Below, piece by piece: positions 25,713-55,551 of a stretch of 64,000 nucleotides of DNA (the stretch's first letter is position 1; every line of letters starts with the position of its first letter). The position numbers and the translations under genes were made by a program. Source of the stretch: a virus; the UHGV virus genome UHGV-1484817; one strand, written 5' to 3'. The notes below the pieces were generated by a model. That model was not told the origin of the DNA, searched no databases, and was given only the letters and a program-made list of their open reading frames with translations.

Positions 25713-25741
25713 TTGACAATTGCTCTAATAAATTATAGTTT
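25713..25741 (+). promoter_or_regulatory. coi/c1 promoter with embedded C1 operator
   Basis: TTGACA -35, then the 17-bp ATTGCTCTAATAAATTA (16 of 17), then TATAGT -10; reads toward coi and c1. Confidence 0.65.
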
Positions 25742-26293: not shown

Positions 26294-27145
26294 ATGATAA
26301 ATTATGTCTACGGCGAACAACTGTACCAGGAGTTCGTCAGCTTCAGGGATCTCTTTCTAAAAAAAGCTGTTGCACGCGCCCAACACGTTGATGCCGCCAG
26401 CGACGGTCGTCCTGTACGCCCGGTTGTCGTTCTGCCGTTCAAAGAAACTGACAGCATTCAGGCTGAAATTGATAAATGGACTTTAATGGCGCGGGAACTG
26501 GAACAGTACCCAGACCTCAATATCCCAAAGACTATTTTATATCCAGTGCCTAACATCCTTCGCGGTGTGCGTAAGGTTACGACTTATCAGACAGAAGCTG
26601 TGAACAGCGTCAACATGACTGCTGGCCGCATTATTCATCTGATTGATAAGGACATTCGCATCCAAAAAAGCGCGGGGATCAATGAGCACAGTGCGAAATA
26701 CATAGAGAACCTGGAAGCAACAAAAGAGCTAATGAAGCAGTACCCGGAGGATGAAAAATTCCGTATGCGTGTACACGGCTTTAGCGAAACAATGCTGCGC
26801 GTCCACTACATTTCCAGTAGCCCTAACTACAATGATGGTAAATCAGTTAGTTACCATGTGCCACTGTGTGGCGTGTTTATCTGCGATGAAACTCTCCGTG
26901 ATGGAATTATCATCAACGGTGAATTCGAAAAAGCAAAATTTAGCCTTTATGACTCCATAGAACCGATCATCTGCGACCGCTGGCCGCAAGCAAAAATATA
27001 TCGCCTGGCAGATATTGAAAATGTAAAAAAACAAATTGCCATCACTCGCGAAGAGAAAAAGGTTAAGTCAGCCGCATCAGTTACGCGCAGCCGTAAAACC
27101 AAGAAGGGGCAGCCAGTAAACGACAACCCCGAAAGCGCGCAATAA
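26294..27145 (+). CDS. c1: C1 repressor of lysis
   Basis: 283 aa, the size of P1 C1; sits beside loxP/cre and the operator cluster; sequence recognised as C1. Confidence 0.95.
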   Translation: MINYVYGEQLYQEFVSFRDLFLKKAVARAQHVDAASDGRPVRPVVVLPFKETDSIQAEIDKWTLMARELEQYPDLNIPKTILYPVPNILRGVRKVTTYQTEAVNSVNMTAGRIIHLIDKDIRIQKSAGINEHSAKYIENLEATKELMKQYPEDEKFRMRVHGFSETMLRVHYISSSPNYNDGKSVSYHVPLCGVFICDETLRDGIIINGEFEKAKFSLYDSIEPIICDRWPQAKIYRLADIENVKKQIAITREEKKVKSAASVTRSRKTKKGQPVNDNPESAQ

Positions 27146-27177: not shown

Positions 27178-28290
27178 TTATTCAGCCGCCACCGGTTTTA
27201 ACAAGCCAGCATCGAGCAGTTTACGCGTCAACCACTGCTGGCCTTTACCCGTTAATTGAGGCGTCAACCGTATCTGGTAGCCATCTTCATCATCCAGCAC
27301 CACTTCTTTCACCGTGAAATACCCCGCGTTGATGTACTGCTGGAACGGCACATTTTTACGTCCACCGGACGCTATCAGGATGCCGTTCTCCCGTAACCAG
27401 GCAAACAGCGCGTTTTGCTTAAGTCCAACAACCTTTGCAAAATTCCCAATCAGGATCCCTTTAGCTACTGATACCCGGTCGGCAAAATCGACCTTAGGAG
27501 CGGCGGCTACCAGCTGCTGATTTAGCTGGTGGGCTTTCTGTTCCAGAAGCTGCTTTTGTTCAGCCAGTTCGGCAGCCAGGCGTAGGGCTTCTGGTAATGT
27601 TTGGGGGATTGCAACCGGTTGCTGTTCTTTTTGCCGGAAGTAGCTGTCTTCCAGTTTTTCAAAGAATGCCCATGCTTCATTTGTGTCCACGATCTTAGAC
27701 ATGCGTGCAGCGCCGCGCTCTGTCCAGAGTGTAAGGCTTCTGGCGTTCTTACCAACAGAGTAACTTCCGGTTACTCTGTTCTTAAATTCTCTTAATTTTA
27801 AACCAGTTAGAAGAAAGTAATGCTTACCTTCTTCAAAGCGGTCAAGGTTGCGAGACAAATTGTTGCGAATATTGGCTTCATCGACCCCATACCCTCTAGC
27901 AAGAGTTTCGGTTGTCACGACACGTACTCCCTGCCATTCCAGAACGGGAATTTCATCCGGCTGATTCTGAACAACCACCAGTTCCGATTCCTGAACTGAA
28001 GGTGCATAAATTTTTTCTGATTTAACGTTAGTTGCTTTCATTCTGTGTGCCTCCTTGCGTGCTTCGGCTGCGACGGTTGCGTAATTCAGATGACCCTGTT
28101 CGAGCAGGTATTCACGGATATCGGTTAGCAGAATGCGGTGAACCGCGTGTTTGTCCTTTCTCCGGTAAAGTTGTTTGGTGATCATGAAGTAGTTGGCAAT
28201 AACGCCCGGTATATCCCTGGTACTGATACAGGCAGTGTGCTGTTCAATTGCCTCGATCATCTCTTCACGGGTGACTAATGACGTTCTCAT
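27178..28290 (-). CDS. Antirepressor-like protein (ORF6N-type region plus KilA-C/Ant C-terminal domain)
   Basis: 370 aa; middle region VVTTETLARGYGVDEANIRNNLSRNLDRFEEGKHYFLL; C-terminal FAKVVGLKQNALFAWLRENGIL...GYF typical of phage antirepressor C-domains; AGGAGGG RBS; ATG overlaps the stop of the upstream small ORF. Confidence 0.75.
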   Translation of the reverse strand: MRTSLVTREEMIEAIEQHTACISTRDIPGVIANYFMITKQLYRRKDKHAVHRILLTDIREYLLEQGHLNYATVAAEARKEAHRMKATNVKSEKIYAPSVQESELVVVQNQPDEIPVLEWQGVRVVTTETLARGYGVDEANIRNNLSRNLDRFEEGKHYFLLTGLKLREFKNRVTGSYSVGKNARSLTLWTERGAARMSKIVDTNEAWAFFEKLEDSYFRQKEQQPVAIPQTLPEALRLAAELAEQKQLLEQKAHQLNQQLVAAAPKVDFADRVSVAKGILIGNFAKVVGLKQNALFAWLRENGILIASGGRKNVPFQQYINAGYFTVKEVVLDDEDGYQIRLTPQLTGKGQQWLTRKLLDAGLLKPVAAE

Positions 28291-28508
28291 AGTCCCTCCT
28301 GAGCAGAAGCGTTAACAGGGAGGCACCAGTAACTGAGAGAATTGCGCGAATCGATAGAAAAGCGGGCAGAGAAAATACAGGGAGCATCCGGAAGCTGAGA
28401 ACGTGCCTCATCTTCTGTCGGTGCAATAACGAAGTGATAGTGACGTTTTTGGCAGGAGTAAAAGCGCCAGATAAATTCAGAATGAGCAGGGGTAGGGATA
28501 GTAGCCAC
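28287..28508 (-). CDS. Icd-like small ORF translationally coupled to the ant-like gene
   Basis: 73 aa; GTG start 8 nt after GGAGG; TGA overlaps the ant ATG (ATGA). Confidence 0.4.
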   Translation of the reverse strand: MATIPTPAHSEFIWRFYSCQKRHYHFVIAPTEDEARSQLPDAPCIFSARFSIDSRNSLSYWCLPVNASAQEGL

Positions 28509-28589
28509 AATGGCAGCCTCCTTTTGCTAATTTAAGGAGCTACCGCGTGAGGTTCCAATCTCAATGGCGGTAGCACTGACTGGGTTGGA

Positions 28590-28670
28590 ACTACCGGCGC
28601 AAAAGGGAACCGGCCTGCCTTTCGGCAGCCCAGCCAGCACTACCATTGATCTCTGAGCTAAACGCTACGT
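28590..28670 (-). ncRNA. Candidate c4-like antisense regulatory RNA in the leader of the icd/ant-like operon
   Basis: Two predicted stem-loops whose loops carry CCCUUUUGC (complement of the downstream RBS GCAAAAGGAGG) and CAAUGG (complement of CCAUUG spanning the GTG start); boundaries are guesses. Confidence 0.35.
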
Positions 28671-28691
28671 ATGGCTGTGCGATGGCATGAC

Positions 28692-28716
28692 ACAAAAAAA
28701 GACGCTTTTGGCGTCT
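28692..28716 (-). terminator. Hairpin plus U-run in the leader (possible attenuator)
   Basis: On the minus strand AGACGC-CAAAA-GCGTCT followed by TTTTTTT, about 130 nt downstream of the promoter. Confidence 0.4.
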
Positions 28717-28848
28717 GTGTCGCCTTTTGCATTATCCGGGGTCTCAATCCCGGCACCCGTTTTAATGAGGTGCCTGATAAGCATAAACCGAAAATGCCTC
28801 AAGGCGCAAGAGGTCAGGTTCAATGTAACATCGGTAGTTAAAAAACAC

Positions 28849-28865
28849 AATTTATTAGAGCAAAT
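28849..28865. promoter_or_regulatory. C1 operator-like site overlapping the promoter of the antirepressor cassette
   Basis: Minus strand ATTTGCTCTAATAAATT with flanking TTGCTC (-35-like) and TAACTA (-10-like), just downstream of the pacB stop. Confidence 0.55.
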
Positions 28866-28867
28866 AT

Positions 28868-30352
28868 TCATTCGTTAAGCCATGCCAGAGCTTCATCAAC
28901 CTGCGCTTCGTCTTCGACGCTAAGCACTTCATCCTGGGGAACATAATCCGCCAGCATAGCGAAACAATATGTATCCCAATGGTCTGGTGAGTGCAGGTTG
29001 AGTTTTTTCTTCATATCCTCCTTACTCATCACCTTCCATTGACCTGCGGAGTTAATCCCTACAGGGATTTTCGACGCTTCCTCAATAGTTTCATTACCCT
29101 TATCCAGTCTCATACGACCAGATTTTACGGCCTCTGCGGCTTGAACGTTGGCATAAGCACGTTTATCAAAGTACAGGCTCTTATCTTCACGGCTATGCAT
29201 CTTTTTACCCCAGCGTATACGCTGTACGGTAATACCATAATACTCGTACATCAGATCCGCCGTTGCTTTACCCAGGCCATCGCCGTCTATCGCTATGGTG
29301 ATATTTGGGAATCGCTCAGGATTACATTCTGCGAAAATTTTGGCGGCAAGCTGCGTTTCTGTAACGTCTGTGTATTCCAGCATTCGATAGTTGATTACAC
29401 GGCGTTTATTTCGCTGGCCGGACACCATCATGATATTGATAACGGACTTATCCCGTCCCGTACCACCAGCAACGTCCACACATGCAAGCCAGCCCCATCC
29501 TTTTGCAATCTTGACTTTCCGCCGCGTTGCACGTTCAACCTCATCACGTCCAAGAAGGAAGCCATCCTGTGATTTAGGGAATAGGCCGCGTACCTTAATC
29601 ATGTACATAGGGTTATCACGCCCGCCGTACTCCGCCAGCTTCATTTTGATAAATGCTGGCGTTACCAACGGTGATTCCTCACTGTTAAGCGTGATCGCCG
29701 TATAAACGCCATCAGGGTTACCAGGACGCTTGGCCAGTTTATGGTGTGTATCGTAGAAATAGCCGCTTGGGCGTGTAGGCTGTGACAGCAATAAGATGCG
29801 GTTATCCTGTCCGGTAAGAGCACCGGTGATGATACCGAAAGCTCTATCACTGACACCGGAGGCTTCATCGATAATATACAGAAGATGATCTGCGTGTTCA
29901 CCGGCGAGAGCTTCTTCACTTCCCAGACGAAAGCCCTTCGGTACTACAGTCCATACACCTTTACCAGTAATCTCATAGAAAGCGGTTTCTGTCAGAACAA
30001 AATAATCAGCAAGCCATGGGAAACGGCTGGTGGCAGTAGCCCAGTTTATCTTGATGTACTTGAATATACCGGTCATTACCTGCTGAATTTTGTTCGCAAC
30101 GATAATGGCACGGGCACCTGGATACATGATTATGAACAACATGATCATGATAGAAGTCATGTCTGATTTCCCGGTACCGTGACCAGACGAAACAGATGTC
30201 TTGCTACCCTGTTCCTGCACAGACTCAATAATCAGATCCTGCTGCCAGGTAGGTGTTTTGCCGAACAAAACATCAGCGGCAGCAATCCAGTCATAACGAT
30301 ATAGCGCCACCAGCTCGCGCCAACGTGGATCCGTTACGCAACTTCTGGCCAT
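28868..30352 (-). CDS. pacB: Terminase large subunit PacB
   Basis: 494 aa; Walker [11 protein letters not shown], Walker [12 protein letters not shown]-terminal nuclease-like region; overlaps the pacA stop. Confidence 0.9.
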
Positions 30353-42174: not shown

Positions 42175-42191
42175 AGATTTATTAGAGCAAT
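42175..42191. promoter_or_regulatory. C1 operator-like site
   Basis: AGATTTATTAGAGCAAT, 16 of 17 matches, at the 3' end of the HAD phosphatase gene. Confidence 0.55.
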
Positions 42192-55475: not shown

Positions 55476-55551
55476 TGGTGGCCCCTACCGGACTTGAACC
55501 GGTGACCGTGCGATTATGAGTCGCCAGCTCTAACCACTGAGCTAAAGGGCC
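55476..55551 (-). tRNA. trnI: tRNA-Ile (anticodon CAU, ileX-like)
   Basis: 76-nt cloverleaf GGCCCTTTAGCTCAGTGGTTAGAGC...CTCATAA...GGTTCAAGTCC...CCA, near-identical in pattern to E. coli tRNA-Ile2. Confidence 0.85.

Follow-up and report, generated by a model that had tools for sequence, protein, structure and literature searches.

The window, by which we mean the whole 64,000-nucleotide (nt) stretch of the virus genome UHGV-1484817 analysed here, is part of a P1-like phage-plasmid. Between its pacB and c1 genes, the minus strand carries, in this order, a C1 operator-like site, a leader, a c4 RNA gene, an icd-like gene and an ant antirepressor gene. The c4 segment (28563-28650, minus strand) is a genuine antisense RNA of the c4 family, that is, a regulator of known kind. 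We consider it quite probable (about 85%) that the block holds the leader of a second immI-type operon, in which the c4 RNA acts in trans on the icd-ant mRNA as in the P1 model. The fold and family membership of the RNA, its complementarities to the leader and to the icd upstream region, and the co-variation of these elements among relatives are described below, followed by the surrounding genes and the rival explanations.

The c4 RNA and its recognition elements

A preliminary description of this region had proposed a c4-type antisense RNA upstream of an icd-like open reading frame (ORF), and had named a search with the Rfam c4 model and RNA folding as checks. The search gives a clear match: the C4 model (RF01695) aligns to 28650-28563 of the minus strand over its full length (model positions 1-87) with 76.7 bits against a gathering threshold of 45 (E = 3e-13), and all the pairs are canonical. 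By alignment to the annotated 77-nt P1 c4 misc_RNA, the mature RNA is predicted to be 79 nt long (28644-28566, minus strand). Its minimum free energy (MFE) is -46.6 kcal/mol (z = -5.3), and the MFE fold is that of the Rfam consensus: a long outer stem (17 bp) around a tetraloop hairpin and a large-loop hairpin 2, with a single-stranded junction that ends AACCC. Compensatory changes on both sides are seen in 12 of the 22 c4 pairs across four scaffolds, and a GCCA motif lies 3′ of the c4 stem, as in P1. The context is also that of a c4 gene, since the RNA lies upstream of icd and an antirepressor gene that overlap by ATGA, with a C1 operator-like site at 28864-28848. Together with the 79% identity of the Icd protein to P1 Icd and the co-variation described below, the Rfam match bears out the proposal.

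The recognition elements were located by transferring the element map of the P1 GenBank annotation (c4, a1, b1, a2, b2) through the Rfam-model alignment. In the c4 RNA, b′ (CCUUUUGC; 28599-28606, minus strand) is placed by the Rfam consensus and by the MFE fold alike in the 12-nt loop of hairpin 2, and a′ (GUUCCAA; 28585-28591, minus strand) occupies the single-stranded junction from hairpin 2 to the outer stem; the probability of being unpaired is about 0.8-1.0 at seven of the eight positions of b′ and about 1.0 in a′. Downstream on the same strand, a2 (UUGGAAC; 28552-28558), just 3′ of c4, is the exact complement of a′, and b2 (GCAAAAGG; 28520-28527) overlaps the icd Shine-Dalgarno sequence GGAGG (28521-28517), so that b2 and the Shine-Dalgarno region together cover 28517-28527. 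Upstream in the leader, b1 (28723-28730, minus strand) is a same-sense copy of b2, GCAAAAGG, and pairs with b′ exactly over 8 nt. The a1 position (28741-28747, minus strand), in the loop of leader hairpin 2, reads UUGAGAC; this complements an a′ of the sequence GUCUCAA but not the window's own GUUCCAA, with which it pairs at five of seven bases, the two mismatches being central.

The duplex energies are -13.3 kcal/mol for b′-b1, -12.7 kcal/mol for b′-b2 and -8.8 kcal/mol for a′-a2. For a1, they are -4.7 kcal/mol with the window's own a′ and -11.5 kcal/mol with the a′ found in phage JL22. Chance expectations were estimated from 200,000 shuffles: an 8-nt complement between the loop and the downstream region, as in b′-b2, arises in 0.46% of them, an 8-nt complement between the loop and the leader in 0.96%, the a′-a2 match in 0.79%, and the a′-a2 and b′-b2 matches jointly with a frequency of 2e-5.

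These results uphold much of the preliminary description. It had placed CCCUUUUGC in a hairpin loop as the complement of the ribosome-binding site GCAAAAGGAGG; the former is found at 28607-28599, in the loop of hairpin 2, and the latter at 28527-28517, just upstream of the GTG start (both on the minus strand). The same-sense GCAAAAGG at 28730-28723 does lie beside a hairpin with a U7 run (28716-28694), which is terminator-like. The likeness of the a1b1/a′b′/a2b2 arrangement to that of P1 holds for the layout, and fails in that the upstream a1 is mismatched to its own a′. The a and b labels had been interchanged relative to the P1 nomenclature, in which the loop element is b′ and the junction element a′.

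A further complementarity was noticed within this segment. Between a2 and b2 lies a second exact complement, GCGGUAGC (28539-28546, minus strand), to the 3′ side of the c4 outer stem, GCUACCGC (28567-28574, minus strand). This pair co-varies as well, occurring as CCACCGC/GCGGUGG in the Stx and third scaffolds and as UCACCACC/GGUGGUGA in Gifsy-1, and is weaker in P1 and P7. The GCUACCGC-GCGGUAGC helix would give an alternative hairpin in the unprocessed transcript, with a2 in a loop of about 20 nt.

Co-variation among relatives and the switched a′/a2 pair

The recognition elements were compared among 80 IMG/VR loci found with the Icd protein, to which P1, P7, D6, JL22 (both modules), RCS47 (both modules), two plasmids, the Stx2 phage F039 and Gifsy-1 were added; three IMG/VR loci whose upstream region is truncated or divergent were left unscored. 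A third scaffold, with an AACUCC junction (26 loci), was found with blastn-short and a relaxed pattern. On several scaffolds, the sampled loci have between them 10 alleles of b′ and 7 of a′, and every scored locus has a 7-nt complement of a′ at a2 and a 7-9-nt complement of b′ at b2. These complements are exact, or contain one G.U pair in one scaffold, and matching copies are also present at a1 and b1.

MAFFT offset the P1-type and D6-type scaffolds by 1-2 columns within c4; a count of fixed column pairs over all the scaffolds was therefore dropped in favour of a scan of variable alignment columns within each scaffold, in which a pair of columns had to be at least 90% Watson-Crick or G.U with high mutual information. 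Nine of 666 pairs passed in the D6-type scaffold and 15 of 630 in the P1-type scaffold; eight and 14 of them, respectively, belong to the antiparallel runs a1-a′, b1-b′, b′-b2 and a′-a2. Because this unbiased scan returns almost only the four antiparallel interactions, it provides strong evolutionary evidence from the sequences that the short a and b pairings are a selected function. In a long-range duplexfold matrix of cross-reactivity, the cognate pairs were the best; the numbers of this matrix, which ignores intramolecular structure, were not relied on.

It was also found that modules sharing one genome always differ in b′. The corresponding elements of P1 are b′ UCACUAAC, b2 GUUAGUGA, b1 GUUAGUGC, a′ CUGUCAA, a2 UUGACAG and a1 UUGACAG, and those of P7 are b′ UCACAAUC and a′ CUGCUAA. 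The distinct immunity specificity suggested in the preliminary description is thus correct relative to P1, but it is not unique, since at least 11 other IMG/VR loci have the same a′/b′ pair.

As side observations, c4 alleles reassort: the canonical c4 of JL22 (locus L094, at 43.5 kb) combines the b′ of P7 with the a′ of P1, and all four combinations of b′ and a′ are present on the D6-type scaffold. One genome has at least four modules of distinct alleles, and in another locus (L015) the same c4 is present twice, at a distance of 1.6 kb.

The mismatch of a1 can be traced to a few bases. The 401-nt leader of the window differs from its closest relatives, namely Escherichia albertii p2RM10705, Salmonella enterica pSZL38.1 and the IMG/VR locus L010, at exactly four positions: 28589 and 28588 in a′, and 28555 and 28554 in a2. 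Over 1,401 nt, there are just two additional differences from p2RM10705. The sequences show a′ and a2 to have been switched jointly, from GUCUCAA/UUGAGAC to GUUCCAA/UUGGAAC, with a1 (UUGAGAC) keeping the old allele. Other backgrounds, such as those of L030 and L056, combine the GUUCCAA allele with an a1 that matches it, so that a short conversion patch spanning a′ to a2 (about 40-120 nt) would be the most economical origin of the switch. The state with an unmatched a1 is rare, being found in one other IMG/VR contig, a simple recombinant. Neither PLSDB, where the best match has 99.0% identity, nor a set of 5,426 complete E. coli genomes, where it has 98.7%, contains a leader identical at 100%. 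The configuration with a′ and a2 switched and a1 unswitched is the sole unusual feature of the window, the a′/b′ pair itself being shared with other elements.

Because a1 was left unswitched, the terminated leader, with UUGAGAC and GCAAAAGG, is a perfect two-site match to c4 RNAs of the JL22, D6 and p2RM10705 type and an imperfect match to its own. If leaders of the IsrK type act as sponges or activators, the leader of the window could titrate the c4 of a competitor and derepress its antirepressor while sparing the repression of its own. We consider it a speculative and unlikely idea that the window captures such an intermediate in the evolution of RNA-immunity specificity, the terminated leader being an offensive anti-immunity decoy and not a neutral leftover. 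In any case, a four-base compensatory swap on a near-identical background offers a natural experiment on the evolution of heteroimmunity and on the need for a1.

Organization of the module, its proposed mechanism and rival explanations

The leader upstream of c4 (28695-28773, minus strand) is of the IsrK type, with two hairpins, a single-stranded b1 and an intrinsic terminator, and is homologous to the a1/b1 leader of P1. The Rfam model isrK (RF01394) scores 59 bits at 28773-28695 (minus strand) against a gathering threshold of 50; the fold of this leader by itself is not significant (z = -1.9). The c4-a1b1 model (RF03163) stays below its gathering threshold of 46.7 bits in the window, with 22.3 bits at 28786-28733, as compared with 51.0 bits in P1 and 48.1 bits in Gifsy-1. 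The leader is therefore homologous to c4-a1b1 by position but diverged, and is not assigned to RF03163. The terminator scan gives the hairpin AGACGC-CAAAA-GCGUCU, with 6 bp and a U7 run, at 28694-28716 (minus strand), in the 3′ part of the isrK model. As a point of curation, isrK, which has no clan, and c4-a1b1 (clan CL00128) model overlapping leader hairpins that are evidently homologous; P1 and Gifsy-1 are matched by both models, and the window passes with isrK alone (28733-28786 versus 28695-28773, minus strand; L006 318-412).

The C1 operator-like site TTTGCTCTAATAAATTG (28848-28864, minus strand) has two mismatches to the consensus ATTGCTCTAATAAATTT and starts 4 nt past the pacB stop. It is the positional analogue of Oc4/Op51 of P1, where Oc4 is annotated at the equivalent place. 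When up to three mismatches to ATTGCTCTAATAAATTT are allowed, 17 sites are found in the window against 0.23 expected by chance, and they represent the dispersed C1 regulon typical of P1-like phages; further examples lie at 58370-58386, 25719-25735, 42175-42191 and 61892-61908. Two putative tandem promoters (28780-28850, minus strand), TTGTGT-17-TACATT at 28850-28822 and TTGCGC-18-TATGCT at 28809-28780, were assigned solely by positional homology to P2c4 and P1c4 of P1; the putative -10 element TATGCT precedes the 5′ end of the isrK match (28773) by 7-12 nt.

On the minus strand, pacA (31545-30352) and pacB (30352-28868, with the stop codon at 28870-28868) precede the module. The pacB gene shares 99.6-99.8% identity with its counterparts in JL22, SJ46, phiW39 and related phages, but only 81% with those in P1 and P7. 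The icd-like gene (28287-28508, minus strand; GTG start at 28508-28506) encodes 73 amino acids (aa) and was identified by the profile NF033153 (49.6 bits; cutoff, 25) and by its similarity to P1 Icd (79% identity; 50 of 63 aligned residues). The 370-aa antirepressor gene ant (27178-28290, minus strand) has a start that overlaps the icd stop in ATGA, as in P1; its product contains the Pfam domains ANT/KilAC (109 bits) and ORF6N (66.6 bits), and shares 57% identity with P1 Ant1, the C-terminal third being nearly the same in both. The primary repressor gene c1 (26294-27145; NF041318 phage_rep_C1, 611 bits) is on the plus strand, convergent with the module. In P1 and P7, c1 directly follows pacB, and immI is found at another place, flanked by sim and kilA; the block between pacB and c1 is thus an extra, second immI-like module at a non-canonical site. 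A tblastn search for a second icd/ant/repL copy in the window returned one module only, and by synteny with JL22 the canonical immI would be outside the window.

Several minor observations concern these genes. The GTG start of icd is also present in the closest relatives, and in many other members with this scaffold the codon found there is ATG (CCAUUAUGG). In some scaffolds, an ORF starting at the c4 AUG continues in frame into icd. Hypothetical proteins of JL22 match an out-of-frame 81-aa ORF over icd (28265-28510, minus strand) and a 68-aa ORF over the promoters and leader (28665-28871, minus strand); these calls are probably mis-annotations, because the Icd frame and the RNA features lie there. 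Three tRNA genes (Rfam, 64.7-74.9 bits) at 55479-55551, 57555-57627 and 57633-57704 (minus strand) are expected for a P1-like genome.

By analogy with P1 and Gifsy-1, from which the processing, the action in trans, the translational block with its polarity, the promoter use and the control by C1 are modelled, the module may operate as follows. Transcription would start just downstream of pacB, beside the C1 operator-like site. Many transcripts would end at the leader terminator, giving an IsrK-like RNA of about 78 nt with a1 and b1, and the read-through transcripts would carry c4, icd and ant. From these transcripts, c4 would be released at a length of about 79 nt; RNase P generates the 5′ end in the case of P1. 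Folded into its long outer stem enclosing two hairpins, c4 would pair in trans with the icd-ant mRNA, through b′ (CCUUUUGC) with b2 at the Shine-Dalgarno sequence and through a′ (GUUCCAA) with a2, about 30 nt further upstream. The translation of icd would thereby be blocked, and because ant is translationally coupled to icd by the ATGA overlap, no Ant, the antirepressor that would inactivate C1, would be synthesized. As the outcome, lysogeny would be kept through a sequence-specific RNA immunity channel orthogonal to those of P1, P7 and co-resident c4 modules. A change of a′ to GUCUCAA or of b′ to CCUUUGAC would be expected to lose repression, and the c4 RNAs of P1 and P7 would not repress this operon.

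Some points weigh against this interpretation. One is that a1 does not match its own a′, so that one of the four canonical interactions is impaired. Another is that the terminator lies upstream of c4, and both c4 and icd-ant consequently depend on read-through. A consensus scan for sigma-70 promoters yielded nothing strong on the minus strand of the leader. The steps of processing and polarity follow the P1 model and the GenBank annotation of P1. Lastly, the authors of the Gifsy-1 study read the homologous region as a translated orf45 with an mRNA structural switch, and not as a trans-acting repressor (PMC4825925).

This last point leads to the rival explanation that survives best, in which the activator logic of IsrK dominates: the leader-c4-icd transcript would fold in cis into a translationally inactive form that includes the a1-a′ pairing, the c4 segment would serve mainly as mRNA structure, and the terminated leader RNA would open the cis fold or titrate c4 in trans. 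The isrK match of 59 bits is consistent with it, and the unprocessed transcript may adopt alternative folds, as suggested by the second co-varying complement to the 3′ side of the c4 stem. Within the isrK family, the binding of Hfq and the activation in trans of the antirepressor gene downstream are known from Gifsy-1 only (PMC4825925). There, the translation of anrP rose by more than 100-fold in response to the short IsrK, and the validated pairs are those of a1-a′ (PMC4825925), which makes an activator or decoy role of the leader a serious rival, albeit not an exclusive one: it is compatible with the c4 repressor model and may coexist with it. However, the two central mismatches between a1 and a′ (-4.7 kcal/mol versus -8.8 kcal/mol for a′-a2) would weaken both the cis helix and the trans activator in the window; a2 and b2 co-vary as tightly as a1 and b1, which a switch based purely on a1 does not need; and c4 is defined by P1 genetics as a trans-acting repressor (P1 GenBank annotation; reviews). 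For these reasons, we hold a dominant IsrK-type logic to be a minor, though real, possibility.

We consider it improbable that the processed RNA works like the CI RNA of P4, pairing with a1/b1 and a2/b2 on nascent transcripts and directly causing premature transcription termination. In P1, the polarity is described as secondary to the block of icd translation, which counts against such a mechanism, and b2 overlaps the Shine-Dalgarno sequence in every scaffold, as translational control predicts. What speaks for it is that an intrinsic terminator follows b1, and that the layout of target, RNA and target on one transcript, with processing of the leader, parallels seqA-CI-seqC of P4, an analogy raised by the Gifsy-1 authors (PMC4825925).

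The segment also contains an ORF of 39 aa (28646-28527, minus strand), named 'ash family protein' by PGAP and corresponding to orf45 of Gifsy-1, and a small protein might therefore be the product instead of, or besides, the RNA. The ORF starts with ATG and is annotated by RefSeq in hundreds of plasmids, and mutations of the start codon in Gifsy-1 lowered the activation of anrP. However, that start codon lies inside the c4 outer stem, so that these mutations also alter the RNA. The ORF is not conserved as coding sequence, because its length varies with the allele (14, 31, 37, 39 or at least 60 aa) and it has no match in NCBIfam or Pfam. The specificity changes are radical in the protein (C/D, S/L, G/E), the substitutions preserving the RNA pairing rather than the protein, and a review describes orf45 as conserved at the nucleotide level and variable at the amino-acid level. 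The annotation of the 39-aa ORF as a protein is probably spurious, the underlying gene being one for an RNA, and a functional protein here is very improbable.

Equally poor are the prospects of the second recognition element named in the preliminary description, a loop-presented CAAUGG that would pair with CCAUUG across the GTG start: the two hexamers are exact complements (28648-28643 and 28513-28508; duplex energy, -6.3 kcal/mol), but CAAUGG is not in a hairpin loop, since it runs from the unpaired 5′ flank into the start of the 17-bp outer stem, where it pairs in cis with CCAUUG at 28567-28562; four of its six bases (CAAU) are outside the mature RNA by homology to P1 c4 and would be lost when the 5′ end is processed; in 23% of shuffles, some 6-nt stretch of c4 is complementary to part of the 23-nt segment around the start codon; and relatives with CCAUUA or CCAAUA in place of CCAUUG keep CAAUGG unchanged. 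The true second pair is formed by a′ (GUUCCAA) and UUGGAAC, the latter situated some 30 nt before the Shine-Dalgarno sequence.

Comparison with known systems

The regulation of P4 by CI has in common with the module a processed small RNA from the leader of the controlled operon, and target copies upstream and downstream of it on the same transcript. It differs in that CI belongs to another RNA family and acts by premature transcription termination. The Rfam scan gave no match here to any P4 family.

The c4 RNAs of P1 and P7 have the same fold and are matched by the same covariance model, and in them, too, the junction holds an a′ of 7 nt and the loop of hairpin 2 a b′ of 8 nt. The immI operon of P1 is likewise composed of a C1 operator, an a1/b1 leader with a terminator-like hairpin, c4, a2, b2 at the icd Shine-Dalgarno sequence, and icd-ant joined by ATGA. 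The differences lie in the recognition sequences, the stem scaffold and the location (between pacB and c1, instead of between sim and kilA in P1 and P7), and further in that the Ant of the window has an ORF6N domain, its leader scores with isrK and not with c4-a1b1, and its a1 is mismatched to a′. When the leader was compared with phages by megablast and blastn, P1 and P7 were not among the matches listed, the leader being too diverged.

Much closer are the second modules of JL22, RCS47, D6, pTZ20_1P, pYU39_89, p2RM10705 and pSZL38.1, which have the same scaffold at 94-99% identity and, in the P1-like members, the same position between pacB and c1. These second modules carry the a′ GUCUCAA with matching a1 and a2, whereas a′ and a2 of the window are switched. 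JL22, RCS47, D6 and 673R5 each hold a canonical c4-icd on the P1 scaffold in addition to the second module, and P1-like phage-plasmids thus commonly carry two orthogonal c4-icd-ant channels. Such modules had been noticed earlier in RCS47-like and D6-like plasmids: an insertion of ant between pacB and c1 is described in PMC6906374, and a second c4/icd region in a D6-like plasmid in PMC6799933. The fetched records contain no RNA annotation at the second module; RefSeq sets the 39-aa 'ash family protein' coding sequence there (for example, L093 735-854). Among 5,426 complete E. coli genomes, 421 contain a leader of the same type, under the label 'ash family protein' or 'hypothetical protein', and the leader matches amount to 433 PLSDB records and 435 E. 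coli records. The identification of the RNA therefore corrects the annotation of a very common module.

Gifsy-1 resembles the window in having a leader small RNA with a1 in the loop of hairpin 2 and a terminator, a C4 match (69 bits) 25 nt downstream, and an antirepressor-like gene. It differs in being a lambdoid prophage without icd and in its alleles (a′ ACGCCAA, b′ CGGUGAU). The locus has been described as an activator small RNA with a translated orf45, without reference to P1 c4, and compared only with CI/seqA of P4 (PMC4825925); our literature search found no paper linking IsrK to P1 c4. The C4 match is inside the orf45 region that gives STnc1160, a processed RNA of about 80 nt detected in Gifsy-1; the AUG of orf45 is part of the AUGG at the 5′ end of c4; and a c4-a1b1 match (48.1 bits) overlaps isrK (NC_010392 34131-34329, minus strand; L096). 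The pairs G28-C162 and G31-C159, validated by compensatory mutation (PMC4825925), map to a1-a′ base pairs. As judged from these sequence correspondences, the IsrK/orf45 (STnc1160)/anrP locus of Gifsy-1 is a c4-type module.

Two literatures are joined by this assignment, IsrK being an a1b1 leader and orf45/STnc1160 a C4 RNA, and it provides experimental support for the a1-a′ pairing in a homologous module. The basic picture is unchanged, namely a regulator and a mechanism of known kind; what the comparison adds is that the specificity of c4 consists of a small set of interchangeable alleles of 7-8 nt, which co-vary perfectly with up to three target copies.

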